Assembly: GCA_024239055.1 (NCBI GenBank)
Contig: JANBVJ010000002.1
Coordinates: 67,874 to 131,873, forward strand
Source: Patescibacteria group bacterium
Lineage (GTDB): Bacteria; Patescibacteriota; Minisyncoccia; Minisyncoccales; UBA10102
Direction of reading: 5' to 3'
DNA length: 64,000 nt
In this document: in pieces, positions 3,585-54,278 of the stretch
How positions within the stretch are numbered: position 1 is the first letter of the stretch
How the letters are laid out: each line of letters begins with the position of its first letter
Program-made: the position numbers and the translations under genes
The notes under the pieces: generated by a model
Told to the model about the DNA's origin: nothing
Seen by the model: only the letters and a program-made list of their open reading frames with translations
Databases searched by the model: none

Positions 3585-3874
3585 TATGCACTCGCATTCC
3601 AAAACATCAAAGTCTCTTTACATGCTAAACATTTTTTATTGGTATATCTATAGAAAATAACTCCACCATATCCACCAACAAAAATCACTGCAAAAAGTAA
3701 CAACCAAGTAATAGGTTCCTGAATAAATGGAAATTGAAATGTTGGAAAACTATTCTGAACAAGTGCTAAATATCCAAAGTAAATCAAACCTGCAAAAGCA
3801 CCTGCTGTAATGAAACTTGTCTTTTCACAATGTCGCTTATCCAGAAACCCAAGACCACCAATTCCTTTCACCAT
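3584..3874 (-). CDS. Multi-pass membrane protein (96 aa) with C-terminal CxxC
   Basis: Three hydrophobic segments. C-terminal KKCLACKETL. An ATTTTAG-type element lies just upstream of the ATG. Confidence 0.6.
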   Translation of the reverse strand: MVKGIGGLGFLDKRHCEKTSFITAGAFAGLIYFGYLALVQNSFPTFQFPFIQEPITWLLLFAVIFVGGYGGVIFYRYTNKKCLACKETLMFWNASA

Positions 3875-10331: not shown

Positions 10332-10521
10332 ATTCCTTATCATACTCCTTCACAATAAAAAATAGAGCAATTATTAGAAATGAACCTGATAGAACTGCTG
10401 TCATCCAAATCAGTTGAACCTGTTTTGCCCAAACTGCTGATGCAAAAAGAAATAGAAAACCTAAACCACATAGTATTGCTGAGTATCTTGTTTTAGTAAA
10501 AAAATGATTATTGGAAGTCAT
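10309..10521 (-). CDS. Two-pass membrane protein (70 aa)
   Basis: Two hydrophobic helices. ATGA-type overlap with the ParB-like gene stop (10518/10521). Confidence 0.5.
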   Translation of the reverse strand: MTSNNHFFTKTRYSAILCGLGFLFLFASAVWAKQVQLIWMTAVLSGSFLIIALFFIVKEYDKEYEQVKQL

Positions 10522-11907: not shown

Positions 11908-12062
11908 TTACTAAACATAAGATCAGTTCATGATCAGATCGTGATCAGATCAAGATCAATTTGTTGTTGATAACCTGTACAGTTTTAGTAAACATTAGAT
12001 CAGATCATGATCAGATCGTGATCAGATCAAGATCTTTTTGTTGTTGATGACAGTACAGTTTT
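11908..12062. repeat. Two tandem ~78-bp repeats, extremely GATC-dense
   Basis: Units 11908-11986 and 11987-12062 share ...gatcag.tcatgatcagatcgtgatcagatcaagatc..tttgttgttgat.ac..gtacagtttt. I count 6 + 7 = 13 GATC sites in 155 bp of an AT-rich genome. Confidence 0.85.
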
Positions 12063-24150: not shown

Positions 24151-24169
24151 CGCTACTCTATTCACTCAC

Positions 24170-24745
24170 CTAAGTTACGGTTATAGTATAGTTGACGTTC
24201 AAAGTGTCTCCGGCAGAAATCGTAACGCTACCGAATGTTGAACGTGCAAACATTTGCCCACCTGCAATTCCGTTAAAAATTCCGGCTTCTGTGATCGCAC
24301 CAGCACACGTAGCACCATCGAAGGATGATATTACACTTGTTGATGTTTCACCAGATGTTCCTGAATTTGAATCAGGTGATGCATCTTGTATTCTTGCACA
24401 TGCACTTGTCTCAATCGTTGTATCTACTGCTGTAGGTGCAGTTGTTCCGGTTCCGATTTCTATGAAATCAAAGAACGTTGAACCTGCTCCACCAACTCCG
24501 AATGTTGCTTGACTCATCTCATCAAGTCCGACATCTACAACTAGGTTGTGGTTTTCAATCGTGTACTTTAGCATTCCAGTTTCAGTGTCAAAAACTTGTA
24601 AGATTACATGACCTGTAATCTGAGATGCATCTACTAGAGATGGTGTTTCTGAAAGTTCAGATTGGAATGAAGTTGAAAACGCAGACATTCCAAGAAGTAC
24701 AGCGACTAATGGAAGTGCGAAAAGTGCGTATTTTATGTTAGTCAA
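24170..24745 (-). CDS. Small secreted beta-rich protein (191 aa) with atypical G/C-richer codon usage; candidate abundant structural subunit
   Basis: TTG start (in-frame TGA 12 nt upstream). Signal peptide YALFALPLVAVLLGMSAFS. C-terminal ITEAGIFNGIAGGQMFARSTFGSVTISAGDTLNVNYTITV resembles fibre/jelly-roll-type strands. Many CpG-containing codons, unlike its neighbours. Confidence 0.85.
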   Translation of the reverse strand: MTNIKYALFALPLVAVLLGMSAFSTSFQSELSETPSLVDASQITGHVILQVFDTETGMLKYTIENHNLVVDVGLDEMSQATFGVGGAGSTFFDFIEIGTGTTAPTAVDTTIETSACARIQDASPDSNSGTSGETSTSVISSFDGATCAGAITEAGIFNGIAGGQMFARSTFGSVTISAGDTLNVNYTITVT

Positions 24746-24810: not shown

Positions 24811-27800
24811 CTAACTTGAATCGAATTTCTTCTTGAATTTCTTCTTTACTCGTGTCTGTCTCCTTCTGCCTCCCTTGACCCTTCTTCTAATGAAGTTTCC
24901 AAACACTGCTGAGGCTATTAAGACCATGAATAGTAGGATTATCTGTAATTGGACTATATCTAGAGGAATAGGTCTGCCATCTACGAATACCTCAGTCGAA
25001 GCCACATATTCTTGATCACCAAGTCCGAACCTGAATTCTAATGGTAGAGTGTGTAGGATTGGGTCAAAGCAGTTTATTGTAATGCCTAAATCTGCATTAC
25101 ATTCTGATGGAGGCAAAACTATTGTATATGGAATATCAGCACTCGACATTGCAAATTCACCAGTTCCTTCAAGTCGCTGAACAAGTGGGAATGGTGGCAA
25201 GTCGAATCTTATATCTAGGTCTGAATCTGGAAGAGTTATTCCCTTTACTATGAGATTATCTTCTCCTTCCCATTGAACTGTGATAGATCCTTCAATGACC
25301 TGTCCTGCCTGAGCAAACTGATGAGTTCTTGAGAGTATTGAAAGTCCAGTTAACCTTTGTGCAAACACTACTTCTGGATCTGGAATCGTTATTTGTGGTG
25401 TTGGTTGTGAACCACTTCCTCCACCTCCACCACCTGCTGGTGCTCTTCCTAAGAATAGGTTGAAGTTGATTGTTACATCAGTCATGTTAACTACGTATGT
25501 TTCAGATGTGATTTTATTCAATCCTGAATTATATGAAGTTGGAACTACATCTGCACTTGCTAGGAATTGTTCTGCATTTGCCTTGAATATTGTAGAGATA
25601 AAGTCTGCAACCATTGTAGAAGTATCATTTACTGCACTTCCTTGCCATCTTGTACTCCAACTAACTTGATCGGTTGAATCACAAACTGGTGTTGATGGGA
25701 ATTCTGTAATGTCTTTTGCATCAGTATAGTTTACTTTGATTCTAATATCTGTGCCAGCACCATTCGTGGGACAATCAACGTCAAATACCAATGCATTTAT
25801 CGTAAATTCTGATGTATCATTGCCTGCTGGTGCAGGGAAGTTGAATGTCTTGTTTAGGATAAAGTCATCTGCATCTGTGAATGTAAAGTTAAAGTTTCCT
25901 ACAGCAAGATTATCAAATATTGCGTTTGAATTTACATCAAGACCTACAAGTAGATTGAATGTAGAGTTTACACCTTCAACAATTCCTCCACCTTTGAAGA
26001 ATGATCCATCCTGTTCTCTTACCTTGACGATTAGATGAGATCCAAATATTATATCTACAACATTACTTACAGTTCCCTCTCCTGCACTTGAAAGTGCCCT
26101 TATACGATAACCAAATGTATCAGGCTTTGTGACATTTGAATCGCTGAAATTCAAAACGTTTGGAGTCGTAGTATTGGCAATTAATGTAGTGAATCCTCCA
26201 AAGTTAATTCTTCTATCAATCTTGTAACCTGTAATTGGGTTTGCAGAAGCCGGAGTAGTCCATGAAATATCTATCTGATCTCCATTTTGTGCACCTGAAA
26301 GTAGAGGTGCATTAGGTGGACTAGCAGTTGTTATTGATCCTTCATTGCTGAATGCTCCTGTACCAAATGCATTGATTCCTGATATTCTATATGTGAATTG
26401 TGTAGCAGGAGTTGTTGTCGTATCAGTAAACGTAACGAGTGAATTACCAGTATTAGCAATTAGAACTAAAAATCCACCTGCTCCAACCTTTCTTTCAATT
26501 TTATATCCAGTTGGTGATCCTGCTGGTTCAGTCCAATCTATAGTTACATCACCATTTGGTTCTTCATTAACATCAACAAGTGATGGTGCATCTGGTACAC
26601 CTGAAATAACAGGCAAACAACTTTCAATGTTTGAAGTAACATTTGCGAATCCTAACCTACTTCCTGCACGTACATCATACTCGTACAAAATATTCATTAA
26701 AAGTCCAGTATCATTATGAGTTGTTATTATGTTTGTTGTATTTGAAATTAAGGTCGTGAATCCTCCACCATCTACCTGTCTAAATATTCTGTAACCGTTT
26801 ATTGCTGATGTAGTTACTGGTGCTGACCATGAAAGTTCACATGTATTTAGTACAGTTGATGCTGATAGATCAGTTATTCCTTCTGGAATTGTTGGTGGAG
26901 TGATAACTACTACATCATTTGATGATACCAAGTCACCTGTAAAGAATGTTAATGTTACATTTCCAGCACCACCATTTAGGAAAGTAATATCATCAATTGT
27001 TCCTTCATAAGTTGAATCTCCTGTACCATCTCTATTGCTTACCATTACTTTGAGATACCTAATTCCTGTAGTACCTGCTTCAATAACTTCTTCTACAGAT
27101 TCTATTGGAGATAAGAAGAGTGGATCTGAAAATATCGTTGCTGTAACTGCTGTACTGTTTGGAACTCCCCTTTGCACTTGAAGATAAACATCATTTATTC
27201 CTAAATCGTCTACATTCGTGGTAAATACTTCTCCTTGAGTTGCTCCTGTATTAATTACAGTTCCATCTGATGCAATAACTCTAATTATTCCATCAGGATT
27301 ATTATGACTTAATCTAAATCCTATAAAGTCCTGACCTTGATTTGGAAGGAGTGTGTTGCTATCACCAAATCCAATAAACAAGTCATTTCCTGTAGTATCT
27401 GATCCTGCTGATAATGCTGTAATATTCAATTTTGCTCTTAGTAACCAATCTTCTGTATCTAGAGTTGTTCCTATTGGGTCAACAAATTCACCTTGATTGT
27501 AGGTTCCTGTTCCACTTGAATCCCAATCCATGAATCTACTTACTGTATCTACTGAAACTCTTGTTCCAGACATTGTTGTAAAGTTGTCAGTTTCAAAGTT
27601 ATCAAAGAAGTCATACTCTACTAAGTAAATGTCATCAACTATTCCAATAATATCTCCGTTTGCAGTTCCATCACTATTTTTTACCATGACTTTGAGATAT
27701 TGTAAATCTGTTATTCCTGCTGGTATTGTTACTGTTTGTGATTCTAATAATGTGTTGAAACTTGCATCAGAAAATAGGTTTATTGTTAGACTTGTAGTTG

Positions 27801-30800
27801 AGTTTCTAATCATTTCTACATAAATTAATTCTTGAGTAAGATTTCTTGTAAATGTCGCTAATGTACTTGATCCACCTGATGGGAATCCTCCATCTGATGC
27901 TACCACTTGATAATCTTCTGTGTTACTTGCAGTTTGTAATCCCAAACCTATCCAATCTTGTATTGCACTTTGGACTACTGTTTCATCCGAATCGGATAAC
28001 CCAATGTGCATTTCCAGTGCAGTTGCATCACTGTTAATTGAATATGTTTGAATATCTAATTTGTATCGAAGTGCTAGTTTGCTATCTGCCTGTAATGCAA
28101 CTCCTAAATCAAAAGCAATTCCATCATTTGTTGTAACTGATGTTGGCACACTAAAGTCTAATTCATCATTGGATATGTTTACTCTAACTCTTGCTGTATC
28201 AGTTGTTGTCCAATTTCCATCTGCCTCTCCTTGAGTTGTATAAGAAGTGAAGTTATCAGCAAATATAGTTGCTCCACCTCCACCTGAAAATATCTCTACA
28301 TTTCTTATGACTTTATCAATAACGTTTCTTCTTTCATCTAGAACTGTTACAACATCAGTTTCAGTTTGAGTTGAATTAACTCCACCTACATCAGTAGTGG
28401 CATTTACAATTAAATCGAATGCACCAGTTGAAACTGCTGACTGACCTTTTGCCCTATATATGAAAGTGGTATTTTGAATTAACCCTGTATCATTAAATTC
28501 TGTAATCAATTCATCAACAGTTGTTACATTTATGAAATCACCAAAGACTTTAAGGCTTGTATCCATATCAAACTGGAAAATTTCATCATCTGCTACTTCG
28601 TCAACATAAACTGCTGAACCAGATTGTGGAATCCACAAACTTCTAGGTTCTGGTGCGAACAAACCTCCTTGACCTACATTAATTCCTACGCCTGTTGTAA
28701 TCATCGTAGTAATATCAAACGCAGTTGTCATGTTTCTACCATCAACTGAATCATTTAATCCTCCACCAATATCTAAAAGTCCTAAGAACTTTCCATCAGA
28801 TCTTACAGCAACGTCAAATACACCAGTAGAAGGTAGATAAGGAACATCTGCAACTTGTGATAAAGTTGTAATATCCCATGCAGTAGTTAAATCAAATTGA
28901 AATAGTCTGTCATTGTCTGATTTCGGAGCATACAATCTGCTTCCATCTTCTGTAATCCAAATTCCTTGTATGAAAGTAGGCAATGTTGTAAACTCTGCGT
29001 TGAATGCTAATGTGGATAAATCAAATGGTGTTGATAATGTATATTCATAAATGTCTGTATTACCACTTTCAAGAATAAACATCTTAGTTCCATCTAATTT
29101 GAAATGAACATCTGTTATTTGAGCAACTTTTGATCCTAATGTACTAGATAAGTCTGTACTATTTTGTGTAGATACTGCTGTTGATACCTCAAACGGAGTT
29201 GTTAAACTGAATTTGTTAACGGTATCTGTAAGTACGTCAGGAACAAACATTTCTGTACCATCTGGTGTGATGTATAATCCAGCACCAACATTGTATGAAC
29301 TTGTATGGTTTGTTGGGTTTTGATCATTTCCACTTGTTAGATTCCAAATTCCTATCTGCTGTGACCTTTGTATAATTACTCCTGTCAATGGATCTGATGG
29401 ATGAATTGTTCTTGCTTGATCCCAAGAAATATTTATTGCAGTTGAGTTAAGTGCTGTTGCATTTAGACCTGTAATTGGTTGAATTAGACCAAATTCAACT
29501 ATTGTAGAGTTTATACCAAATCCATTTGTATTGTTTGCACGAACTGTATAATTCAAAAGGTTAGTTATTGGACTAATTGTTGTATCTGTAAATTCGCTTG
29601 CAACTGGTGAACCAATTAATACAGTTCCATTTCCAATTACTACAGTACCATTTTGATTGTTTAGTGTTGCTTGAGGATTTCCAAATATACCAACTTCAAA
29701 CAAGTCTGTGAAGTTTATGTTTGGATTAGAAAAGTCATATATTGTTTCAGTTTGTCCTGCTGATGCGTTACCAATGAATAATCTGTAAATTTCATGCTGT
29801 GTAGAAACAGATACAGACTGGTCACTGTGACGAATTAAAACTGTAACAATATCATCTGCACTTGATAGATCTATTCCTGTTTCATCAAGAGTAACGTTTT
29901 GTATTCCGATTGAAGTTACTGGTACTACTGGTGCATTTGCTATTCCTAGTTGTGTAGCCACTCTTGGTAAATCTGTTGGAAATACAGTTGGTATGTTTGA
30001 TTCTACATCACCATTTAAAACTTCTATACTTAATCTTCCATGAACTAGACAATCAACATTACCACAATATGACTGGTGTTCAAGAATTATGTCCTTGTTT
30101 TCTATGAATGATTTTGTAAATGTTTTGAGGACATAACCTTCACCAAAAGATAATAAGCCCAAATTACCTTCTATTCCAGTTTCATCTGCATTGTTAGATA
30201 GTAATGTTCCGTTAGGGCTAATTGTATAACCATATCTTGCGTTGTTTGCACTTGTAGCAAAGGATGTGTGTTCTTTTATTGTCCATTGGCTTCCATCTGT
30301 TCTAAAGACCTGATAATTATCAGTATCAGGAATATCATCCCAATCCAATGTAGCATTGTTATTCATGTTTTGAACTACAGTGAGACCTGTAACTTGTGCT
30401 GGTGGTTGTGGAAGTGAGAAACTTGTTGTATTTACAAATCCTCTTTCAGCGATAAATCCTTTCTGTAGATCCATACAAGTTTTTGGACAGACATCACCTG
30501 CTCCTTGTCTATTTCCTTCAACTGTGTATATTATTTGTGGGTTCGTGAAGTTCCATGTTCCAATTTTTGAAACTGTAATATTTGCAATAAATAATTCGTA
30601 AGCACCAGCATTAGAACCAACTGGTGATGAATCTGGATCTCTCATTGATACTACTACTGTAGCGAAACTTGAATTGAAACTACCCCAATTTATGCTACTT
30701 GCATTTAGCGTTTGAATTGTCATATTGAAATCACCTATTCCAGCACCAACTGATGCACCTTCTATTCCAGACAAAGTTAATCCTGATAGACTTGTTCTAA

Positions 30801-33800
30801 CACCATCTACATTAGATAGAACAGGTATATCATGTGCAAAATTAAATCCAGAATCTTTGTTTATAATTCCGTCATAAACAGCGAGAGTTGCAACACTTGT
30901 TAATCCAACACTTTGAACACCACCATTTGCTTCTTGTTGCCATGCGATTTCAATTGATGAATCGGTTATCTCAGTTAAGTTGAATATTTTGAAGAAATGA
31001 ATTATACCTGCTCCCCTGTCATTATTCTCTGCATCCCCACCTGTTGCAGATAGACCTGTGTTGATGTTTAGTAAGTCAGTTGGTAATGGTTCACCATTGT
31101 CTGCTGTTGTTCTACCTTCCTGAGCACCAATTGATACGTTTGCATTTGGAAATTTGCCACCACTTCCACAATTGTTTAAACATCCTGCTCCACTTGCACC
31201 TTCAAGAATTGACTCTTCAAGGTCATGTTCTCTAAACTGCCATATTTTTGAAGTTGAATTAAACAAGTCACTTCCAGAAATTAGTGGTGCTGTTTGATTT
31301 ACAATTGATGATACATTACCCTCTGTACTTCCAGTTAATGATTGAACTTTATAGAAAAATAGATTTCCTTCATCTTCACTTGTTAACACATCTGTAAATG
31401 TATCAACATCACCAAGCGTTGCTATTTCTTCAAATTGATCCCCGATAAGATCAATTTGTAAGTTCAGAGTATTGAACCTAGTCCATGCAGTTAAATCTCC
31501 ACCATTTTCAGTAACTAATTCACCATTATCAAAATTTGTTGCGTATGATGTAAAGCCAAAACCTGTGTCATCTCTATACATCTGGATAGTACCAACTATT
31601 GATCCGTTTGTGTAAGCACCTACCATGTATGTTTTATTAGCCAATAATACAAAGTCGTCAAACTCAAAATCGTGGAAATTTCCAGATGGGAATGGATTTG
31701 ATCCTATTGTGCTAGTAAATATGTCTGTACTATTTTCTAATATCTCATTTAGAGATGCACTTGAACCATTGAATACTGCTACTTTAAGTACGCTGTTTCC
31801 ACCTGACCATGATGTACCTACTATCTTTAATCTTATTTTATCAAGAGTAAAATCTTGATTTCCCATAGTAAAGTTTTGTGCTCTACCACAAGGTTGAGCA
31901 CCACCACAAGTAAAGTCATTAAATGTTACAGTTCCTTGATTTCTAACACCTCCAATTTCTACATCTCCAACTGGTTTATCGTTTAGTTTAAGATAATCAT
32001 TTGGTAGATCTTCACCTTTAACTTTAGAAGTTGTATCATTTGTTGCTTTTCTTAAAATTTTATACCCATCGGCAGTTATCTCCTTTGTCCAGTTTATTGT
32101 AATGTCATTTCCAATTTGTACTGCTGTAACATTTGTTGGAGGTGGTGTTAATGTAGCGTTTACTGCTGTTGCATTTACAGTGTTTGAGAATCCACCTTGT
32201 TCTAGAAGTGCGTTCAATCCAACTATTCTGTAAAAGTATGTGTTTCCTACAACTGGTGATGCTTCATCTATATTTGTGTCTGAAAATGTAGTTGCAGTTG
32301 AACCAGTATCATCAACTTCTGGATCTGCTGAAAGTTTTGTGTTGTTAATTACTGCAATTGTGAATAACATGTCATTGTTTGCTACGTTTGAAGTCCAAAT
32401 TTGAGTTAAAAAGTCCCAAAATGAATTACCACCTTCTCCAACATTTGCTCTTGAATCACAGTTTAATGTACCACTTGTACCTTCCCACCATGAAATACCA
32501 ATACCTAGTTTTCTTGCATTATCAATATTTACTCCATTTGTAATGTTAAGCAGGTCTGAACCTCTGTAGTACCAAGTTAATGCATTATTTGTTCCCCAAT
32601 CTTCGGGTAAAATTATGGTAGTTGAGTTTGCTATAGTAGAGTTATCTGATGAAATTGTTAACATTCCATCATTAAACAATGAACCTGTTGTAAAACCACC
32701 AATTGCACTATTCTCAGAACATCTATTTCCTCCTGAACCTCCTTCAAATCTAGATATTACTAGACCTTCCCATCTGTCTACTATCCATCCATTAAAGAAA
32801 TCACCTCTCTGTAATATTGCATCGAAATCACCTGAACTTCCTTGCATTGAAATGTTTTGTGGAGTTCCACCTGCTGTTTCTTGATATTCTATTACTTCAT
32901 CTGCTGTTTCTGTTGAAGTTCTGAAAATTCTGTAAGAGTCTGCACCAGCACTTGCATTCCATGACAATTCTATACTTTGTGTTTCTTCATTAAATACTGC
33001 TGTAAGATCTGTAACTGGATCTGGTGGTGGTGGTGGTGAAAATCCTGCACCTGCTGTTATTATTCCTGAATCCTGTTGATTATTAAACAAATTATCATTA
33101 GATGAAAGATCATTATCATTCCATGTATTAGCACCAAATGGATCACCTGCTCCACCAGATCCAACTAATTGTTCAACAGGTGAATTTGTAAAGTTCCATG
33201 TGCCAATTTTTGAAATTGTAATATTATGTATTGTGTATAGGTGTTGATTTGATTGAGCATCCTCAAAGACAAAAAATACAGTTATCCAATCTGATTCGTT
33301 ATCAGCATAATCTATTGATCCTGCTGGTAAAGTGAATTGTGTTAGTACAGTAGAAGTTGGTGCATTTACACTTGCAAGAACTGAATCGCCTGTAATATCC
33401 TGTTCAATTACATCTCCACTACCTGACAATGGCAAAGAAGGTGCTGGTGGATAATCTGAACCAATATCATTATTTTGTAATCTGAAATAATCATCTGCTT
33501 GATAAAATCCTTCCATAACTCGTATGTTTAAATCAGTAGAACCTATTGGTGGATGTTTATAGAATGTTGAAATATCTGAACCATTAATCAAAGTCGCATT
33601 AAATGACTTGAACATCACACAACATCCTCTTGGATCTCCAAGTGATGCTCCTGCTTGACCTGATTGGAATTGTAATCCATCTGTATCATTTGCTATTCTC
33701 ATGTGAGGAACTACTAGCCTTCTTGTATCAAGTTCTCTGTATTGCCATACTGACGATGTTGAGTTTGCAATGTCGCTAGTACCCTCAACAATTGGTTCTT

Positions 33801-36800
33801 GTCCTATTGCAAAGTTAGATTCATCTGCTACGACTATACCATTCAATCCCCTTACATTATAATGACATGTAGTTCCATCAGGACAAGTTGTATCTGTGAA
33901 ATTTGTAATGAGACTGCCTGTATCAGCAACTAGAATATCAAAGTCAATAAATCCAACTCCCATAAACGCATCGTTTGTGGTTACGGTATTGTTAAATACA
34001 AATGGAACTGTATCTGAAAATACTTCAAACCCATCTACAGCAGTATTATGTCTTGAACCAACAAGCATTCTTACTTCCATATCTAATGCTGTACCGTTTT
34101 TTGTAATTCCTATAACATACTCACTACCAGATGCAATCTCTACTGGTGGATCAAAAGTAAATCTAAATGGTGGAAAACCTGAAAAAGTCGATACACTACA
34201 GGCATCAACTAAGTTAGTAGAGTTTGCTATCCATGCAGATGTATCATTATTGAAAATGCTACCCATAAGAGTTTGTTGTCCTATAGTACAAGGTAACGCA
34301 CTTTGTTCATATAACGTAGTCACAATACTTGTAATTTTTTCATCTGATGTTGCGTTGAAGGCTTGACCTACAATGTGCAATGGATCTTCTTTTGTAAATA
34401 TTGTAAATGAAGTTCCAGCAGGTAAACTAAATCCAGCACCATTTTCCCAATGTAAGGGGAAGAAGAAGTTTCCTTCTGATGTTTCACCATAATGGGTTTC
34501 ATTACTAAGTGCTCTTTCAATCCTATATCCTGTTACATTTCCTGTAGGAGTTGTCCAGTTCATGAAAATTGAATCTGATACTGGTGTTACTGTGAGGTCA
34601 TTAATTGGATCTGGTGCTATTATTGGTGGTGCAACTGCAAATGTTACCATTTCTCCATAGTTTAGAGTTCCAGCAGTTAGCGTTCCCTGTGCATTTTCTC
34701 GGAAGAAATCATTTTGAGGTACTCCCATTCCTACCATTGTTGTGTTTTGTGGATTATGCAATAGAGTTGGTGGATGGCTTACACCTGCATCATTAAATGC
34801 TAAGACTCGATATGCTTTTGTAGTATTTGTTGGTGGTGGTGAAGTATCTGTAAAGTTAAGATCCCCTGCTGTTGTAGTGCCAATTGTTTCCCATACTGTT
34901 TCTGCATAAATAGCCATAGCATAGTCCTTGTCTTTTGTTCCGTTGATTGGATTACTTGTGAAAATTCCACTGATTGTATCTTCACCAATTGCCCAACCAC
35001 TTGATCCTCCACCTACTCCTGTTTCTTCAAAATAGACTTTGAAACTTCTGTTAACAGATGTTGTACAATCTCCACTGTTACAGGTCTGTGCTCCTGCTTG
35101 CTGATAACCAAAGATATACTCATCTGGTTCTAAATGAATTGGTGGTGAGAAAACCCAATTTACAAATCCTTCATCTCCTAACGCACCTCCTAAATCATTC
35201 TCCATTGCAATTCTTGGGTTAATTGATCTTGTAATCTGTGTTCCATTGGCAAAATGAATTGAACCTGAAATATCTGGTTCTACGTTAAAAGAACCACATC
35301 CTGCACAACCAAGTTTTACTACAATTCTTGTGATGTTTACTGCCTGTGTTATGTTTAGTTGCTGTCCTGCATGTGTTCGATCAGATGAATCTTTTGGATT
35401 ATTGCTAGTGGTTAATCCAGTTCCATCTAGGAAAAATTCTTCAACATCGTGGCTAAGTCCATCATAAATTGTTGTTTCGTTTCCACCTGTTGCTCTTTGA
35501 ATGATGTATCCTTGAATTGGATCTTCTGAAAGTTCCCTTGATTTTTTGATTGGTGCTTCTGCCCATACTAAATCAACTGTTGCACCATTATCCGTTGCAT
35601 TCAAGTCTGGAACTCTTAATGGAGGTAGTGATAGTGTTCCATTTACTATACTTGAAGTTCCATTTTCACCTAGTATATTTTTTGGAATTATTCTGTAAAA
35701 GTAGGAATTATAATTATTTGTTGTAGTATCACTAAAGAAATTATTAGTTGTTGTTGTAATGTTTATGAAGGTTTGATTCATTACGTGTGATTTTATTTCT
35801 AAACCACTTGTAGTGAACCATTGAAATGTTGAATCTTGGAATCTCCAACCACTTCCACCACCAGCAAATGGTCTTAGAACTCTAAAACCTTCACCTGATG
35901 TAAACTCTTTTCTAAATGCTCCAATAATTTCTGCATTTGCTGTTTCTGCAACTGTCAAGTTCTTCAATTGAGTTCCTAGATACCTTTGTTCGACCTGACA
36001 GTTTCCATCAAACCATTTTCCTGTTGATCTTTGTGTCCAACCATCCTGTTCATAATCCGTTTGCATTCTTGAACAATCTCTTGCTAGTCTGGTTCCATGA
36101 GACATCATGAATCCTGTTTGATTCACTTCTCCTTGTACATCAGGTTCAAGTTGATTTACTCCACCACTGATTACATTAAGCCAGTATCCATAAACTACCT
36201 GACCACCAGTTGGATCATGGAAATCAAATCTTCCAGTTCTAAGTTCGCTTTGAGTAGGTATATCAAAAGTATCAAAGCCTGAATCATCACCTAAAATGTC
36301 ATTTGTACTTGATGTTGAAAGTGCAAAGTTTGATTCTGAACCAAATCCATCTGCCTCTACTTGCTGTCTTTCAGTTGATAATCTTTGAACTACATATTCA
36401 TCTGCATTTGGAGTTACATCCCAAGTAAGATCAAGTTCACCATTTATGTTATCATGTGATATTGCTAAGTTAACAACTTGATCTGGTGGTGATGTTACTG
36501 GTAATTGTGCTAGAACAGTGTCTACAGCAACAACAAAATCTAATGCTGTTTGATTTAGGTTAAATCCTTGTGTTCCGTTTAAGATTACAACTGTATCCCC
36601 TTCTATATCTCCGTTGAGAGGAACAATTCTGTAAAAGTATGTATTTTTTGCAATTGTAGTAGTATCAGTGAAGTTTGTATCAAGTGAACCTGTATCATTT
36701 ACAAAAGGAATTTCTGGACTGAAAAGTTTTGTTTGATTTACAACTGCAAATTCAGCACGTAAATCTTGTCCGTTAGTTGTTCCCCAAAAAGGAACTGAAA

Positions 36801-39800
36801 CATCTGCTCTAACTATTCTTGGGGTAAGTCCACCAATTCCATCACCTGATCTAAATGTAGTTGTTCCTGAATCACCAACTCTTGTTTTATCCCAACTTAC
36901 ACCAATACCAATATTATCTGCACCTTCGGTAGTAACACTTGAAGTTAGATTAATCAAATCTGTACCATAGAAATTGAACGTCAGAGGACTATCCGATGGA
37001 ATTGCCAATACTGATGGATCTCTGAATGTCGTTGAGTTTTTGATAATTGTAAAGTCACCATCACTACTTGCTTGATCAGCATCTAAGAAAATTGCACCTC
37101 TGAGAATTCCACTTGCACCTGTACTGTTGAAAACATGATTCATTGTAATCCTTGAAACTATTTCATTGACAAAAGTTGTTCCCCAACTTGTTTCTGCTGT
37201 GTAATCAGCAGGTAATTCAGATAAAATTTGTGTTTGTGGAGTTATTAAAGTTTCAAAAGAGTAAAGAATTTTTTCATCTCCTGATTCTGTTGAAGTCCTG
37301 TAAATTCTATAACCTGTTGTGTTGATTCCATCGTGAACCCAATCAATATCTAATGATTTTCCTAGTGTTACAGATCCAGATAACACAGCATTTTCTGGTA
37401 CTGGATTTGTTATTTCTGGAAATGATCCAATTGCTTGTGTTAAGTCAAAAGTCATATCAAGAACTTGGAATGATGCACCAATACCATCAGAAGATGCACC
37501 TGCACCTGAATTGTACATATTGTCTATATCTGTATCTGTTAAACTGTAACCATTCCAGATTGTTAGTTCGTCAACATTGAATGTATTTTCAATTATTAGG
37601 CTTGCAACATTATTGTGTGTATTATCACCTATTGTTAATGGGTCTGGTGGAGTTGAACCAGTTCCAGTATGTAAAGCAAGTCCAATTTCAATGTCACAAT
37701 TTCCAGAACCATCTACACAAACTCTTGCATATCCTATGGTATCAGTCTTGTTAAGTAACAATGTAACCATGTGCCATTGTCCATCATCAGCAGGTATAAT
37801 TCCATTAAAAGCACCTCCATTTACAATATTCGTTCCTGCTTCTTTTACCAATAATCGTATATCACCTGATTGAGTGTAAAGTAAAAATGAATTTGCATCG
37901 GTATTTGATCCACTTGAAATTAATGGGTATTGAGTAGCACCAACAACATCACCATTCAACCAAAAGTTAATACTCGTTAAGTTTGATCCAGAATTTCCAA
38001 TTGTTAGGAAATCCCACAATGAAGCATCTGATCCTAAATGGATTTCTCCTTGAGTATCACCACTTGATGTTCCATTTTGAATTACTGCTTCATTAATTAT
38101 TCCAGAAGCATTTACTACGAAAGTTGATAGACTACCACCTTCAAAATATTCTGCATCAGCACTAGATCCTAAAGAACCTGTGTTTGGTGCTGTGCTGTTA
38201 TCAACACCATTTAGTGAGTTTCCTAATCCTAGTGGTAGTGTTACATTTAGACTAAGAAATCCGTAATCTGCAATTTTTTTAAGTGGAGTTGGGTTTCCAT
38301 CATTTATTGGATGTTCATAGAACCAAACAACAGGTTGAGTGAAATTGTATAATTCATTATCGTCAATTTGTACCGAAGTAATATTCATCGAGATAGATCC
38401 ATCTGTTGAATTATCTTTCAAACCTACGTAAATTGTAATTTCTGATTCAGAACTAGCAAAGTAAAGTGGGTCTACCTGAATATCCCCTGTAAATGGAAGA
38501 TCTACTTCCATTATTCCAAGCCTATGATTTTGACCAGTACCCAAATCAGACCGTAAAGCATTTTCTGGATGGTCTGTTTTTGTAATTGCTAATACTCCTG
38601 TTCCACCTGCATAGATAGTTTCCATATCCATTCTTCCATCAATAACATCAATGAAAGCCCTCATAGAACCAGTTCCACCAGACTTTGTTGCACTAATTGT
38701 TGTCTTGAATTGTTTTCCCTCTATTGCAGTCTTGTTTATTGTCTTAAAGACCATACATTGTCCTTGATCTGCATCTGATGTTGCTGTGTTAATGTTAAAC
38801 GCATCACCAAGTCTTTGAAACTTACAGTCATCCATTAAACCAGTTGGAAACTGTGTGTGTTCTTTCATCTGCCAAAATCCTTGTGAATTATTAACTGGAA
38901 TGTTTATTGTGTATCTAGTATATTCTCCATCTGCTACTGCAAATCTATTTACTCCTGCTCTAAATGGGAAACCATTCCAGTTTACTACTGTTGAAACAAT
39001 TCCATCTGGTTGTGAAAAATCAGATGCAGAAACTTTTTCTCCATCTGGATGTAGGTTTGTTCTAACTCTGTTTTTAAAATCTGCTAATGCACTTCCACTT
39101 GCTGTAAAACCTATATCATTTGGAACTGTAAATAGTGTTTGTCCACGACAAATTCCACCATTTAAATTTGTAGTCCAAAGTGGTGCACCACCAGTTGCAT
39201 TATGCCAAACATCACCAGCAGTCATTAAACCACCTTGAGTAGAAGGAATTCCATCTAATCTTCTCACTCCACAATCATGATTACTTGCACCAGAAGTTAT
39301 TTTGAATCTTAGAAGTATTGATGTTAATTCATCAATAAGTTCTGGTGGAAATAATGGACTCTGGTTATAAATTGCAACTCTACATGGAGTTGTAGTGATG
39401 TCTGCTTGATTATTAGCAAGTAATGTTCCACCTGCACCAGAAATTGCTCCACCATCTGGATATGGATCAGCAATACATTCTGCACCAGCACCACTTAGAG
39501 CACCTAGTATATCTTTGTCCATTGGAACATAAATTATTGTTGCCTCTGCTTCCTGAATAAAACCTATATCACCTAAAAAACCTAAATTAAAATCATTTTC
39601 TTCATTAAATTTATCGTAAACTGATTTCTCAACTTCAAAAACTTCTTCTTCCCATGCTATGGGAACCCAACTTCCTACTTGATGTAGTAGATTAACTGCT
39701 TTCAGACTGATCATTTCTGGTTTTTCAGTCTCAACGAAACCTGATTCAAGAGATATTGGTTGTCCGTACTTTAATGCAAAGTATTGATCTGGATCTGGTG

Positions 39801-40080
39801 GTGGATTGTCTATAGTGGTAGGTATTACAAGGAAAGCAGAAGTAACAATTGGATTGAAGTTGTAAGTTGCAAGTGTTAGCATTAGTTCTTGTTCTTGGTA
39901 GTATTCTGCATAAGCCGATGTAATAGGAGTCCATTCAACTCCTTCATATCCAAAAGTTACATTCGTATTCAGTAAAGTTGGAAAACCAACTGCTACGAAA
40001 AATATTATCAAAGTTAAACCGACAAAAATATTGATCTCACGAAGATCCGATCCTAGATCTCGTTTGATAATCCTCTTCAA
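24811..40080 (-). CDS. Giant mosaic surface protein (5089 aa): N-terminal anchor, LamG-like, eight insertion-bearing FN3 domains, propeller-like repeats, 3 x FN3, C-terminal anchor module
   Basis: Uninterrupted 15,270-nt ORF. The TTG at 40078-40080 is the first possible start after an in-frame TGA. TM helix INIFVGLTLIIFFVAVGFPTLL. LamG/ConA-like signature ...DELTIWNGYSLTDTDIDNMYNSG at ~37501-38163. FN3 signatures (LSWNASAGADSYRIFR ... YFYRIV). Five ~50-aa repeats at ~28550-29300. Gly-rich linker, TM helix and KKKFKKKF tail. Confidence 0.95.
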   Translation of the reverse strand: MKRIIKRDLGSDLREINIFVGLTLIIFFVAVGFPTLLNTNVTFGYEGVEWTPITSAYAEYYQEQELMLTLATYNFNPIVTSAFLVIPTTIDNPPPDPDQYFALKYGQPISLESGFVETEKPEMISLKAVNLLHQVGSWVPIAWEEEVFEVEKSVYDKFNEENDFNLGFLGDIGFIQEAEATIIYVPMDKDILGALSGAGAECIADPYPDGGAISGAGGTLLANNQADITTTPCRVAIYNQSPLFPPELIDELTSILLRFKITSGASNHDCGVRRLDGIPSTQGGLMTAGDVWHNATGGAPLWTTNLNGGICRGQTLFTVPNDIGFTASGSALADFKNRVRTNLHPDGEKVSASDFSQPDGIVSTVVNWNGFPFRAGVNRFAVADGEYTRYTINIPVNNSQGFWQMKEHTQFPTGLMDDCKFQRLGDAFNINTATSDADQGQCMVFKTINKTAIEGKQFKTTISATKSGGTGSMRAFIDVIDGRMDMETIYAGGTGVLAITKTDHPENALRSDLGTGQNHRLGIMEVDLPFTGDIQVDPLYFASSESEITIYVGLKDNSTDGSISMNITSVQIDDNELYNFTQPVVWFYEHPINDGNPTPLKKIADYGFLSLNVTLPLGLGNSLNGVDNSTAPNTGSLGSSADAEYFEGGSLSTFVVNASGIINEAVIQNGTSSGDTQGEIHLGSDASLWDFLTIGNSGSNLTSINFWLNGDVVGATQYPLISSGSNTDANSFLLYTQSGDIRLLVKEAGTNIVNGGAFNGIIPADDGQWHMVTLLLNKTDTIGYARVCVDGSGNCDIEIGLALHTGTGSTPPDPLTIGDNTHNNVASLIIENTFNVDELTIWNGYSLTDTDIDNMYNSGAGASSDGIGASFQVLDMTFDLTQAIGSFPEITNPVPENAVLSGSVTLGKSLDIDWVHDGINTTGYRIYRTSTESGDEKILYSFETLITPQTQILSELPADYTAETSWGTTFVNEIVSRITMNHVFNSTGASGILRGAIFLDADQASSDGDFTIIKNSTTFRDPSVLAIPSDSPLTFNFYGTDLINLTSSVTTEGADNIGIGVSWDKTRVGDSGTTTFRSGDGIGGLTPRIVRADVSVPFWGTTNGQDLRAEFAVVNQTKLFSPEIPFVNDTGSLDTNFTDTTTIAKNTYFYRIVPLNGDIEGDTVVILNGTQGFNLNQTALDFVVAVDTVLAQLPVTSPPDQVVNLAISHDNINGELDLTWDVTPNADEYVVQRLSTERQQVEADGFGSESNFALSTSSTNDILGDDSGFDTFDIPTQSELRTGRFDFHDPTGGQVVYGYWLNVISGGVNQLEPDVQGEVNQTGFMMSHGTRLARDCSRMQTDYEQDGWTQRSTGKWFDGNCQVEQRYLGTQLKNLTVAETANAEIIGAFRKEFTSGEGFRVLRPFAGGGSGWRFQDSTFQWFTTSGLEIKSHVMNQTFINITTTTNNFFSDTTTNNYNSYFYRIIPKNILGENGTSSIVNGTLSLPPLRVPDLNATDNGATVDLVWAEAPIKKSRELSEDPIQGYIIQRATGGNETTIYDGLSHDVEEFFLDGTGLTTSNNPKDSSDRTHAGQQLNITQAVNITRIVVKLGCAGCGSFNVEPDISGSIHFANGTQITRSINPRIAMENDLGGALGDEGFVNWVFSPPIHLEPDEYIFGYQQAGAQTCNSGDCTTSVNRSFKVYFEETGVGGGSSGWAIGEDTISGIFTSNPINGTKDKDYAMAIYAETVWETIGTTTAGDLNFTDTSPPPTNTTKAYRVLAFNDAGVSHPPTLLHNPQNTTMVGMGVPQNDFFRENAQGTLTAGTLNYGEMVTFAVAPPIIAPDPINDLTVTPVSDSIFMNWTTPTGNVTGYRIERALSNETHYGETSEGNFFFPLHWENGAGFSLPAGTSFTIFTKEDPLHIVGQAFNATSDEKITSIVTTLYEQSALPCTIGQQTLMGSIFNNDTSAWIANSTNLVDACSVSTFSGFPPFRFTFDPPVEIASGSEYVIGITKNGTALDMEVRMLVGSRHNTAVDGFEVFSDTVPFVFNNTVTTNDAFMGVGFIDFDILVADTGSLITNFTDTTCPDGTTCHYNVRGLNGIVVADESNFAIGQEPIVEGTSDIANSTSSVWQYRELDTRRLVVPHMRIANDTDGLQFQSGQAGASLGDPRGCCVMFKSFNATLINGSDISTFYKHPPIGSTDLNIRVMEGFYQADDYFRLQNNDIGSDYPPAPSLPLSGSGDVIEQDITGDSVLASVNAPTSTVLTQFTLPAGSIDYADNESDWITVFFVFEDAQSNQHLYTIHNITISKIGTWNFTNSPVEQLVGSGGAGDPFGANTWNDNDLSSNDNLFNNQQDSGIITAGAGFSPPPPPDPVTDLTAVFNEETQSIELSWNASAGADSYRIFRTSTETADEVIEYQETAGGTPQNISMQGSSGDFDAILQRGDFFNGWIVDRWEGLVISRFEGGSGGNRCSENSAIGGFTTGSLFNDGMLTISSDNSTIANSTTIILPEDWGTNNALTWYYRGSDLLNITNGVNIDNARKLGIGISWWEGTSGTLNCDSRANVGEGGNSFWDFLTQIWTSNVANNDMLFTIAVINNTKLSADPEVDDTGSTATTFSDTNIDEASPVVGNTYFYRIVGLNALLEQGGFSNTVNATAVNATLTPPPTNVTAVQIGNDITINWTKEITADGYKILRKATNDTTSKVKGEDLPNDYLKLNDKPVGDVEIGGVRNQGTVTFNDFTCGGAQPCGRAQNFTMGNQDFTLDKIRLKIVGTSWSGGNSVLKVAVFNGSSASLNEILENSTDIFTSTIGSNPFPSGNFHDFEFDDFVLLANKTYMVGAYTNGSIVGTIQMYRDDTGFGFTSYATNFDNGELVTENGGDLTAWTRFNTLNLQIDLIGDQFEEIATLGDVDTFTDVLTSEDEGNLFFYKVQSLTGSTEGNVSSIVNQTAPLISGSDLFNSTSKIWQFREHDLEESILEGASGAGCLNNCGSGGKFPNANVSIGAQEGRTTADNGEPLPTDLLNINTGLSATGGDAENNDRGAGIIHFFKIFNLTEITDSSIEIAWQQEANGGVQSVGLTSVATLAVYDGIINKDSGFNFAHDIPVLSNVDGVRTSLSGLTLSGIEGASVGAGIGDFNMTIQTLNASSINWGSFNSSFATVVVSMRDPDSSPVGSNAGAYELFIANITVSKIGTWNFTNPQIIYTVEGNRQGAGDVCPKTCMDLQKGFIAERGFVNTTSFSLPQPPAQVTGLTVVQNMNNNATLDWDDIPDTDNYQVFRTDGSQWTIKEHTSFATSANNARYGYTISPNGTLLSNNADETGIEGNLGLLSFGEGYVLKTFTKSFIENKDIILEHQSYCGNVDCLVHGRLSIEVLNGDVESNIPTVFPTDLPRVATQLGIANAPVVPVTSIGIQNVTLDETGIDLSSADDIVTVLIRHSDQSVSVSTQHEIYRLFIGNASAGQTETIYDFSNPNINFTDLFEVGIFGNPQATLNNQNGTVVIGNGTVLIGSPVASEFTDTTISPITNLLNYTVRANNTNGFGINSTIVEFGLIQPITGLNATALNSTAINISWDQARTIHPSDPLTGVIIQRSQQIGIWNLTSGNDQNPTNHTSSYNVGAGLYITPDGTEMFVPDVLTDTVNKFSLTTPFEVSTAVSTQNSTDLSSTLGSKVAQITDVHFKLDGTKMFILESGNTDIYEYTLSTPFDLSTLAFNAEFTTLPTFIQGIWITEDGSRLYAPKSDNDRLFQFDLTTAWDITTLSQVADVPYLPSTGVFDVAVRSDGKFLGLLDIGGGLNDSVDGRNMTTAFDITTMITTGVGINVGQGGLFAPEPRSLWIPQSGSAVYVDEVADDEIFQFDMDTSLKVFGDFINVTTVDELITEFNDTGLIQNTTFIYRAKGQSAVSTGAFDLIVNATTDVGGVNSTQTETDVVTVLDERRNVIDKVIRNVEIFSGGGGATIFADNFTSYTTQGEADGNWTTTDTARVRVNISNDELDFSVPTSVTTNDGIAFDLGVALQADSKLALRYKLDIQTYSINSDATALEMHIGLSDSDETVVQSAIQDWIGLGLQTASNTEDYQVVASDGGFPSGGSSTLATFTRNLTQELIYVEMIRNSTTSLTINLFSDASFNTLLESQTVTIPAGITDLQYLKVMVKNSDGTANGDIIGIVDDIYLVEYDFFDNFETDNFTTMSGTRVSVDTVSRFMDWDSSGTGTYNQGEFVDPIGTTLDTEDWLLRAKLNITALSAGSDTTGNDLFIGFGDSNTLLPNQGQDFIGFRLSHNNPDGIIRVIASDGTVINTGATQGEVFTTNVDDLGINDVYLQVQRGVPNSTAVTATIFSDPLFLSPIESVEEVIEAGTTGIRYLKVMVSNRDGTGDSTYEGTIDDITFLNGGAGNVTLTFFTGDLVSSNDVVVITPPTIPEGITDLSASTVLNTCELSWSAPVTTSAINGYRIFRQVDGGGFTTLISNTTNIITTHNDTGLLMNILYEYDVRAGSRLGFANVTSNIESCLPVISGVPDAPSLVDVNEEPNGDVTIDWTEPAGSPTGYKIERKVGAGGFLVLIANTGNSLVTFTDTTTTPATQFTYRISGINAFGTGAFSNEGSITTASPPNAPLLSGAQNGDQIDISWTTPASANPITGYKIDRRINFGGFTTLIANTTTPNVLNFSDSNVTKPDTFGYRIRALSSAGEGTVSNVVDIIFGSHLIVKVREQDGSFFKGGGIVEGVNSTFNLLVGLDVNSNAIFDNLAVGNFNFTFTDADDFILNKTFNFPAPAGNDTSEFTINALVFDVDCPTNGAGTDIRIKVNYTDAKDITEFPSTPVCDSTDQVSWSTRWQGSAVNDTSTMVADFISTIFKANAEQFLASADVVPTSYNSGLNKITSETYVVNMTDVTINFNLFLGRAPAGGGGGGSGSQPTPQITIPDPEVVFAQRLTGLSILSRTHQFAQAGQVIEGSITVQWEGEDNLIVKGITLPDSDLDIRFDLPPFPLVQRLEGTGEFAMSSADIPYTIVLPPSECNADLGITINCFDPILHTLPLEFRFGLGDQEYVASTEVFVDGRPIPLDIVQLQIILLFMVLIASAVFGNFIRRRVKGGRRRQTRVKKKFKKKFDSS

Positions 40081-40175: not shown

Positions 40176-40421
40176 TTAGGATCTTGCTCGCTTACGTTTC
40201 TCTTTGTATAAAAACACGAATGCAATAAACGAAATTACCATGATTGTTAATAGAGGAATCGTTGCTGGTGAATTTGGGAATTCAGATTCAGTCTGAACTA
40301 GATTTGCTGGTATTTCTGTTATTCCTGATTCTAAGACTCCTGCCCAAATTGGGATAATTATGATTAGAAATATTAGGAATAGTCCTGCTCCACCAAAAAA
40401 TCTTGCGTTAAATTTTGCCAT
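40176..40421 (-). CDS. Two-pass membrane protein (81 aa) with basic tail
   Basis: MAKFNARFFGGAGLFLIFLIIIIPIW ... LLTIMVISFIAFVFLYKEKRKRARS. Sits between the paralog array and the giant gene. Confidence 0.6.
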   Translation of the reverse strand: MAKFNARFFGGAGLFLIFLIIIIPIWAGVLESGITEIPANLVQTESEFPNSPATIPLLTIMVISFIAFVFLYKEKRKRARS

Positions 40422-54255: not shown

Positions 54256-54278
54256 TGTGACACGTACACATTTAAATC
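54256..54278 (-). promoter_or_regulatory. Copy 5 of the ACGT-centred palindromic motif, at the head of the surface-protein block
   Basis: ctgtgacacgtacacatttaaatc with a tatcaa arm at 54249-54254. It lies 47-69 nt upstream of the GTG at 54209. TTTAAAT is available as a TATA-like box. Confidence 0.55.

Follow-up and report, generated by a model that had tools for sequence, protein, structure and literature searches.

The window analysed here is a 64-kb stretch of DNA (contig JANBVJ010000002.1; 32-38% G+C) in which all large open reading frames (ORFs) lie on the minus strand, and its most conspicuous feature is a giant gene that encodes 5,089 amino acids (aa), is devoid of internal stop codons and begins with TTG. 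The corresponding GenBank entry, MCP6727159.1, is labelled "MAG: hypothetical protein, Patescibacteria group bacterium" (MAG, metagenome-assembled genome) and derives from a contig of 134.9 kb. An initial annotation, made from the sequence alone, had described an uninterrupted 15.3-kb ORF with a TTG start, which was found exactly as described, and had raised the concern that it might be an assembly chimera of repeats. The same frame is present in an independent ENA assembly (ERZ23499938, scaffold_78, 107.8 kb) at 99.88% identity, with six substitutions and neither gaps nor indels over 5,066 aa, and the longest direct DNA repeat inside the gene measures 54 nt, with an identity of at most 88%. 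Since no longer repeat occurs and the second assembly is concordant, an assembly chimera or a collapse or expansion of repeats is unlikely. The ORF of the giant is real and intact.

The TTG at 40080 had been taken for the only possible start. It is indeed the first one, but not the only one, as a second TTG at 40011 (codon 24), where the ENA gene call begins, and an ATG at 39882 (codon 67) are also in frame. A start at either of these codons would truncate or omit the hydrophobic helix at the N-terminus (aa 16-36). Residues 1-23 are kept in every homologue, with S11-F19 being invariant, and because of this conservation, together with TTG or GTG at the homologous position of related genes, support is best for a start at the TTG at 40080. 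Unlike several neighbouring genes, the giant lacks a Shine-Dalgarno-like sequence ahead of its start, and a weak start codon (TTG/GTG) is a trait of the whole family.

In Pfam scans of the whole protein and of 19 segments, with E-values up to 5, fn3 was the only family recognised in the giant. It corresponds to three canonical FN3 domains, which the initial annotation had correctly placed and which score 68.6 bits for PF00041 in the whole-protein scan against a cut-off of 25, while a local hidden Markov model (HMM) gives three full-length copies. An HMM built from these three copies of the giant itself detects N-terminal halves (model positions 3-43) and C-terminal halves (46-91) of further FN3 domains, which follow each other in order and lie 180-270 aa apart. 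When the halves are spliced, all eight copies yield a single near-full-length FN3 match (positions ~2-91) with 21-52 bits, compared with a maximum of 9.7 bits in 400 shuffles; with the Pfam model the spliced copies stay below threshold, reaching 15.8-22.9 bits in four of the eight. In an AlphaFold2 (AF2) model of copy #6, confidence is confined to the two FN3 halves. The giant contains eight split FN3 domains, each carrying a whole domain inserted after the C strand, in the C-C' loop, which brings the total to 11 FN3 domains, three canonical and eight split. The domain map of the initial annotation, largely sound otherwise, had missed these eight domains and their inserts.

One of the inserts is itself a copy of a second recurrent unit, the M module (W-x-x-[KR]-E...NFT), which occurs four times in the giant. 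Its recurrence had been noticed before, but the length assigned to it, ~330 aa, does not hold, as the copies span 180-235 aa. In an alignment of 13 copies from seven proteins, the W and E of the opening W-x-x-x-E are invariant; F-K, an Ile and the Phe in the closing N-F-T are almost invariant, while D-G and F-P are consensus positions only. M-modules 1 and 2 share the near-identical 35-bp stretch reported earlier, for which zero matches are expected by chance. The insert of split FN3 #8 comprises five ~50-aa repeats with the motif [ST][TAP][FW][DE][ILV][ST]T (T-P-F-D-L-S-T-like), matches the Pfam propeller family SGL below threshold (E 2e-4) and may represent a five-blade, propeller-like unit. 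The two adjacent domains of ~220 aa described as duplicated proved to be 218 aa each and 37% identical to one another (E 2e-20). A LamG/ConA-like domain had been proposed as well; the region is retained as a candidate through a transitive assignment, and a direct Pfam match is absent from aa 600-890 even at E-values up to 5. Here, aa 641-863 align with the related protein P0092 at 41% identity (E 9e-43), and the aligned stretch of P0092 passes PF13385 (Laminin_G_3) with 30.5 bits against a cut-off of 27.6, while the orthologous segments of the related loci L005 and L006 give sub-threshold Laminin_G_2 matches. The ectodomain is a chain of ~30 beta-rich modules, in which FN3 domains form the scaffold. 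In line with this composition, the mosaic modular architecture originally proposed for a mobile-element-like stretch was borne out, with all-beta modules and few neighbours recognisable by Pfam. No helix-rich segment occurs in the giant, for which reason a tape-measure or coiled-coil fibre was rejected. The Pfam scans yielded neither an enzymatic domain nor an ATPase family, and a lone Walker-A-like string (aa 902) lies inside an FN3 strand.

Both proposed membrane anchors were recovered. The N-terminal anchor module contains a basic stretch, the invariant SDLREINIF, a transmembrane (TM) segment (aa 16-36) and the motif AFLVIPTTxDNPPPDPxQYFxLKY. A type IV pilin-like N-terminus with a class III signal peptide was considered for KRDLG/SDLREINIF (the slash marking the putative site) and dismissed: the charged residues D, R and E follow, and homologues have L, I or V ahead of the G, as opposed to the [KR]-[GA] of the pilin site, next to which a hydrophobic helix without interruption would begin. 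At the other end, the glycine-rich linker GGGGGGSGS (aa 4883) is followed by a TM segment (aa 5040-5063) and a basic 26-residue tail, RRRVKGGRRRQTRVKKKFKKKFDSS, with 13 Lys/Arg and a net charge of +12. Archaeosortase or sortase signals are lacking, since PGF occurs nowhere in the protein and two LPxTG strings (aa 528 and 3749) lie far from the C-terminus; the C-terminal anchor is predicted to be a plain TM segment with a basic tail. Judged from charge and hydrophobicity by the positive-inside rule, both termini would point inward, into the cytoplasm or the interior of a particle, leaving ~5,000 residues outside.

Exposure of this large ectodomain is also suggested by its composition. The tripeptide N-x-T occurs 108 times in the giant versus 40 times expected from shuffling (2.7-fold, z = +11.7), while no departure from chance is seen for N-x-S (19 versus 29 expected), T-x-N, N-x-x-T, N-T, D-x-T or Q-x-T. 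The N-x-T excess extends to the related proteins P0051 (z = +10.1) and P0054 (z = +8.2), is weak in the downstream proteins of 1,344 and 616 aa, and is absent from the upstream TM-anchored proteins as well as from window proteins lacking TM segments. A threonine-specific excess of this kind is what selection for N-glycosylation would give, and the giant is probably N-glycosylated. Moreover, its 36 cysteines fall into 18 close pairs.

The family is rare. No relatives of the giant were found in IMG/VR, GTDB species genomes, 50,697 phage and archaeal-virus records or 72,556 plasmid records. Among 5.8 billion clustered proteins, a query with aa 1-1000 returned four fragments and the C-terminal 410 aa eight matches, mostly fragments. 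A full HMMER scan of 1.84 billion representatives with aa 2640-3289 gave 35 matches at E <=1e-3, four of them at 1e-10, most of which cover only an FN3 half. The complete protein P0054 (1,840 aa) resembles the giant in the N-anchor (aa 1-124, 46% identity) and in aa 4383-5089, where C-terminal region and FN3 triplet together reach 65% identity over 713 aa. P0051 (4,708 aa) combines the same module types with a three-TM C-terminus, and family members range from 1,840 to more than 5,000 aa. In two further relatives, L004 and L005 from the whole-genome shotgun sets SDBS and SDBU, the frame remains open to the contig end, over >2,873 and >2,162 codons, respectively. We take the material of both sets to be sediment from Loki's Castle. 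Accessions of SDBS and SDBU occur in the text of a study of viruses and metagenomes of deep-sea sediments (PMC6401483). Rarity by size, as suggested by the initial annotation, is not supported, given that nanohaloarchaeal surface proteins reach 9,409 aa (PMC10266531); it is the family that is rare, not its length.

Comparison with these relatives reveals how the giant varies. Every one of them shares the first 100-120 aa with the window protein and then proceeds with a different order and number of modules: the L002 giant skips from aa 120 to window aa 1199, where identity reaches 76%, that of L006 continues at the LamG region, and those of L004 and L005 possess additional LamG and FN3 units while other modules are missing. 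The flanking genes are far more alike. In L005, four upstream genes are 93-98% and a small upstream ORF 95% identical to their counterparts in the window, as opposed to 77% for the N-anchor and ~45% over aa 1-1198 of the giant. In L013, the C-terminus of the giant is 87% and the genes that follow are 69-91% identical. The N-terminal 120 and C-terminal 700 aa are kept, and the modules between them are exchanged, duplicated and deleted. Conserved ends combined with a shuffled and diverged middle mark the middle of the gene as a hotspot of divergence and module exchange. By these comparisons the giant appears to be the fastest-evolving gene of its element, changing far faster than its neighbours, and conserved termini around a hypervariable middle are the pattern that would be expected of a host- or partner-recognition protein. 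Two relatives deviate in the integrity of the frame. In L013 (3-4678), the giant is called as two genes of 1,137 and 376 aa that lie ~130 nt apart, and that of L002 stops prematurely close to the end of its contig, which may reflect real disruptions or sequencing errors in these relatives.

The giant gene is carried by an unclassified mobile element. Some 50 ORFs of 60 aa or more in the window and 15 further ORFs called within 10 kb past the low end of the window (L015), ~65 in all over ~74 kb, contain five Pfam families above cut-off and a few weaker Pfam matches, without any tRNA, rRNA or housekeeping family; tRNA and Rfam matches are likewise lacking in the window. PHROGs and NCBIfam gave nothing solid on the neighbours, and a PHROG "major tail protein" match among them is explained by an FN3 domain. 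Several known element types were discarded. A tailed virus (Caudoviricetes) would be recognised by TerL, portal and HK97 capsid, none of which was found; a Borg-like element lacks support, as pervasive perfect tandem repeats do not occur; and the marker families of known thaumarchaeal integrative and conjugative elements (ICEs; PMC6563490) are absent from the scanned window proteins in Pfam and NCBIfam. Members of the element family have been found in Arctic mid-ocean-ridge sediments and in groundwater, and its core genes are shared by numerous short, unlinked contigs in the metagenomes of several projects.

The most conserved of these genes encodes a P-loop ATPase, of which 49 relatives were listed from sediment and groundwater metagenomes, three of them with LAGLIDADG inteins. 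Its Cys/His cluster comprises the invariant C88, H113 and C116 and the nearly invariant C114. The ATPase sequence has no match in Pfam, NCBIfam or PDB sequences, and only two distant relatives turned up in the public collections (IMG/VR, GTDB species genomes, phage and plasmid records). An AF2 model with a mean predicted local distance difference test score (pLDDT) of 86.8 matches HerA hexameric translocases in the PDB by Foldseek (E 2e-9, probability 1.0), with a TM-score of only ~0.32. In a viral structure library, packaging ATPases of the A32/PRD1 type match best, including B354L of African swine fever virus (ASFV), a Corticoviridae NTPase, the ATPase of Haloarcula virus PH1 (target TM-score 0.65) and a protein of Sulfolobus turreted icosahedral virus (STIV). 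Sequence identity to the structural matches is 10-14%. A PHROG terminase match (E 8e-6) was rejected, as the 50 best matches listed for each of the two libraries include neither a terminase nor TerL; by its model, the ATPase is predicted to fold like FtsK/HerA and unlike a terminase. One distant homologue (L009, 8557-14737) adjoins an MCM helicase on a 181-kb cellular contig, and another (L012, 9911-14741), on a contig labelled Nitrosopumilus sp., lies next to a D5-like primase-helicase and immediately follows the Trp operon and the genes for CTP synthase and NAD kinase. Both flank blocks of cellular genes, which suggests that the module is shared by elements that have integrated there. The N-x-T signature and these distant ATPase homologues favour an archaeal host and a misbinned contig: the element probably resides in an archaeon that lives in marine sediment, and misbinning is likely. 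Low-G+C elements are often binned in error with low-G+C MAGs.

The giant gene is embedded in a long series of genes for membrane-anchored proteins (Table 1). The upstream block of eight proteins is syntenic in L002, L004, L005 and L006, and neighbours of 526, 572, 987 and 1,344 aa share with the giant a topology with TM segments at both termini. The product of the 81-aa two-TM ORF that immediately precedes the giant gene may associate with the giant as its partner in the membrane; alternatively, in size and shape it presumably resembles the major capsid proteins of spindle viruses. The CPBP/Rce1-like protease at the head of the block could be the processing enzyme of these membrane-anchored proteins. 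Within the block, three proteins (at 40428, 41856 and 43314) are paralogues with 24-27% identity, and the gene of the 987-aa protein includes a 66-bp tandem repeat (51182-51319; 2.1 copies, 83% match). Beyond it, each of three tandem paralogues possesses an N-terminal TM segment, a Gly/Pro linker and a beta-rich body without family match. Further downstream of the giant follow small genes, the ATPase gene, a 319-aa protein (10518-11477) whose GRHRHR motif was read by eye as ParB-like without confirmation by Pfam, an MT-A70 methylase and an HNH-like gene. An intergenic 77-bp unit occurs twice (89% match) at 11908-12062, just downstream of the ATPase gene; it is built of GATCAGATCAT iterons and is a candidate origin, partition site or packaging site. 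The MT-A70 methylase gene lies 2 kb beyond this repeat. The octamer CATTTTAR is located 4-30 nt upstream of five starts (2662, 6787, 11503, 54213 and 60040, minus strand) and is found on the coding strand in 12 of 13 cases; with 13 occurrences in the window versus 15 expected, its total is at chance level, and a role as upstream signal was not established.

Table 1. Coordinates of the giant gene, its modules and selected neighbouring genes in the window.
Feature	Position	Strand	Remarks
Giant gene	24811..40080	minus	5,089 codons + stop, no internal stop, TTG start
Start codon TTG	40078..40080	minus	Homologous position TTG in L002, L004, L005; GTG in L003
Conserved N-terminal anchor module, aa 1-124	39709..40080	minus	61-85% identity across relatives
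N-region A, aa 125-402	38875..39708	minus	Cys-containing, no recognisable domain
M-module copy 0, aa 403-582	38335..38874	minus	WQMKEH ... LYNFTQ
LamG/ConA-like domain, aa 640-863	37492..38163	minus	Transitive via P0092 (Pfam Laminin_G_3)
Split FN3 #1, aa 893-1172	36565..37404	minus	N-half 893-936, insert ~185 aa, C-half 1122-1172
Split FN3 #2, aa 1195-1484	35629..36498	minus	
Split FN3 #3, aa 1486-1776	34753..35625	minus	
Split FN3 #4, aa 1822-2096	33793..34617	minus	
M-module copy 1, aa 2112-2299	33184..33747	minus	WQYREL ... NITISKIGTWNFTN; contains 35-bp stretch 33191-33225
Split FN3 #5, aa 2350-2642	32155..33033	minus	68%-identical copy in L004 and L005
Split FN3 #6, aa 2643-2932	31285..32154	minus	AF2 halves pLDDT 70-87, insert <40
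M-module copy 2, aa 2947-3180	30541..31242	minus	WQFREH ... NITVSKIGTWNFTN; contains 35-bp stretch 30548-30582
Split FN3 #7, aa 3226-3534	29479..30405	minus	Carries M-module copy 3 as its insert
M-module copy 3, aa 3266-3452	29725-30285	minus	Nested within split FN3 #7
Split FN3 #8, aa 3534-3896	28393..29481	minus	Propeller-like insert, aa ~3590-3845
Duplicated domain 1, aa 3940-4157	27610..28263	minus	Opens F-x-D-N-F
Duplicated domain 2, aa 4158-4375	26956..27609	minus	
Three canonical FN3 domains, aa 4395-4679	26044..26898	minus	Pfam PF00041, E 5.5e-19
Conserved C-terminal region, aa 4680-5089	24814..26043	minus	Beta domains, linker, membrane-proximal domain, TM, basic tail
81-aa two-TM ORF	40176..40421	minus	Directly upstream of giant in all five related loci, 49-98% identity
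Upstream block, eight proteins of 397-987 aa	40428..54209	minus	Basic N-terminus + TM each; three also with C-terminal TM
Four-TM protein, CPBP/Rce1-like	54272-55060	-	Pfam 26 bits vs cut-off 22.4
Three tandem paralogues, 343-353 aa	55795-59069	-	48-63% identity
Downstream genes: secreted 191-aa, 616-aa FN3 and 1,344-aa both-ends-anchored protein	18045..24745	minus	Syntenic in L013
P-loop ATPase, 540 aa (predicted FtsK/HerA fold)	12118..13740	minus	Walker A GNRGSGKS; most conserved gene of element family

Considering architecture, composition and variation jointly, we lean towards reading the giant as an adhesin or receptor-recognition protein that is exposed, membrane-anchored and N-glycosylated and belongs to an unclassified mobile element, probably of archaea. 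Under this reading, the conserved ends would dock the protein in the membrane beside the co-conserved membrane proteins encoded by its neighbours, while the displayed inserts, M modules and LamG domain would bind glycans or proteins on the surface of a target cell, so that module shuffling would change the binding specificity. The weak start without Shine-Dalgarno-like sequence would keep the copy number low, and the predicted shape is a fibre or a loop anchored at both ends. A more specific proposal, which we regard as speculative and rather unlikely in its full form, is that the giant is the host-range determinant of undescribed large (>100 kb), membrane-containing archaeal viruses of marine sediments with packaging of the FtsK/HerA type, in which loop inserts on an FN3 display scaffold are swapped by recombination to retarget the virus. 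If true, the host range would vary by means of cassettes, in a system that relies on the nesting of inserted domains.

Several observations weigh against an adhesin of an archaeal mobile element. Part of the N-x-T excess lies in conserved motifs (NFTD, WNFTN), so that glycosylation need not account for the whole of it. In the giant, no binding domain with a known specificity was recognised, the LamG assignment being transitive; M module, FN3 inserts and duplicated domains are devoid of a Pfam or PDB relative, and profile searches of PDB sequences with the alignments of M module and duplicated domains matched nothing. The only structure model of the giant's modules, computed by AF2 for aa 2640-3190 from seven paralogous rows, reaches a pLDDT of 46, and Foldseek returned no match for it at E <=1e-3; adhesin-like fold matches of this model were discarded, since none was significant and the model is poor. 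As to the carrier, no virion hallmark gene (capsid, portal) was recognised in the window and no capsid protein in the 10 kb beyond, and the conjugation hallmarks VirB4 and VirD4 were not detected in the window by Pfam or NCBIfam. Concerning the host, the archaeal link rests on ATPase homologues with only 27-29% identity, GenBank assigns the source contig (locus tags KJI69_039xx-040xx) to a MAG of the Patescibacteria, and a related contig was binned with a Woesebacteria MAG. Bacteria of the Patescibacteria group are not known to N-glycosylate.

Where the exposed protein would reside, on a particle or on a cell, separates two rival versions of the favoured reading. It is possible, though not probable, that the giant is a host-recognition spike or fibre of a membrane-containing archaeal virus, with its C-terminal TM segment and tail in the virion membrane; the details of this scenario, namely genome packaging by the FtsK/HerA-type ATPase as in PRD1-, STIV- and SH1-like viruses and a role of the TM neighbours as virion membrane or vertex proteins, are equally tentative. 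Such a virus would agree with the A32-like/PRD1-like packaging ATPases as best match of the ATPase model in the viral library, with the inteins in ATPase homologues, which are common in viral packaging enzymes, with the arrangement of all large ORFs on one strand, with the MT-A70 methylase and HNH-like genes and with hypervariability between conserved anchoring ends, the classic pattern of receptor-binding proteins. Against it stand the capsid protein not recognised in the window or the 10 kb beyond and the lack of relatives in IMG/VR and the phage and archaeal-virus records; furthermore, at 540 aa and with a TM-score of ~0.32 to HerA-like proteins in the PDB, the ATPase differs from known packaging ATPases of this class, which measure ~200-350 aa, and the weak PHROG terminase match is unsupported by the fold. 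Alternatively, the giant may sit on the surface of the carrier cell as an adhesin of a plasmid-like or integrative element, mediating contact for DNA transfer or surface exclusion, with the FtsK/HerA-like ATPase as a translocase comparable to Streptomyces TraB; we consider both parts of this proposal doubtful. The fold of the ATPase, the long block of membrane-anchored proteins beside the giant gene, the ParB-like motif and the distant ATPase relatives, which are integrated beside cellular genes with MCM or D5-like helicase and without any recognised virion gene, are all compatible with it, as is the proposal that nanohaloarchaeal giant membrane-anchored proteins act together with VirB4/TraG-type ATPases (PMC10266531). 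On the other hand, VirB4, VirD4, VirB6, pilin and prepilin peptidase, which mark known thaumarchaeal ICEs (PMC6563490), were not found by Pfam and NCBIfam, the plasmid records contained no match, and the window lacks an integrase.

Two further explanations are less likely than a location on a virion or on the carrier cell. According to one of them, which is improbable, the giant is a chromosomal, non-mobile adhesin by which an ultra-small episymbiont, either a member of the Patescibacteria or a DPANN archaeon, attaches to its host cell. The GenBank label and the Woesebacteria bin speak for it, and low G+C content, many hypothetical proteins and giant surface proteins are typical of ultra-small episymbionts. 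In nanohaloarchaea, giant surface proteins are documented (PMC10266531). Yet the ~65 ORFs over ~74 kb, with the large ones on a single strand and no tRNA, rRNA or housekeeping family, speak against it; the core genes recur on many short unlinked contigs, distant relatives of the module are insertions next to cellular operons, the specific N-x-T enrichment argues for an N-glycosylating archaeal host rather than Patescibacteria, and the bin labels themselves may stem from the misbinning to which low-G+C elements are prone. The other explanation, an assembly chimera of repeats or a pseudogene-like frame that is not expressed, could draw on related genes that are often broken at contig ends or split, as in L013 and L002, but is very hard to sustain: apart from the agreement of two independent assemblies, the internal repeats share just 27-40% identity at the protein level and do not exceed 54 nt at the DNA level, an open frame of 15.3 kb cannot arise by chance in DNA of 35% G+C, and homologues include both the two long open frames and the complete relatives of 1,840 and 4,708 aa. 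An exposed adhesin or receptor-recognition protein of a mobile element is the reading that we favour.

Giant modular adhesins are already known, and size alone would not make this protein remarkable. What is new is a very rare family with several domain types that lack a Pfam or PDB relative; eight FN3 domains in series, each hosting a whole inserted domain; the combination of the fastest evolution in the element with a clean N-x-T signature as evidence of exposure; and a carrier that represents an unclassified family of large mobile elements, filed under Patescibacteria while the evidence points to archaea. Should the element be a virus of ammonia-oxidising or other sediment archaea, the giant gene would offer a handle for finding its host and receptor. 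The probable misbinning also matters to users of that Patescibacteria MAG.

With respect to known systems, the ATPase of the element shares with the FtsK-HerA superfamily the P-loop and a Foldseek probability of 1.0 to HerA hexamers and viral packaging ATPases, but differs by an identity of 10-14%, a global TM-score of ~0.3 and the extra Cys/His cluster (C88, H113, C114, C116). The giant departs from ordinary FN3 proteins (PF00041) in that 8 of its 11 copies are split by an inserted domain of 180-270 aa, one of which is an M module and one propeller-like; from a literature search that was not exhaustive, we know of no description of such serial FN3 nesting. It resembles the receptor-binding fibres of phages and archaeal viruses in its conserved terminal module, shuffled middle, faster divergence than its neighbours and FN3/lectin-like modules. 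In contrast to these fibres, it lacks a tailed-virus context (the ATPase being FtsK/HerA-like rather than TerL), is anchored by TM segments at both ends, contains no trimerisation, coiled-coil or beta-helix segments and has no sequence match in phage records. A further parallel is provided by SPEARE, the giant membrane-anchored extracellular proteins of Nanohaloarchaeota with 5,385-9,409 aa (PMC10266531). These are likewise giants of an archaeal type with Ig-like/FN3 arrays, are accompanied by LamG-type lectin domains in their neighbouring proteins, are membrane-bound and strain-specific and have been proposed to bind another cell. SPEARE, however, is chromosomal and includes a VirB4/TraG-like ATPase domain, whereas the giant described here is devoid of such a domain and resides on a mobile-element-like contig, and none of the searches revealed a sequence relationship between the two. 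Taken together, the giant belongs to neither the receptor-binding proteins nor the SPEARE group, although it most resembles both in function, and constitutes a new family of the modular adhesin type that is marked by serial FN3 nesting and by its unclassified carrier.

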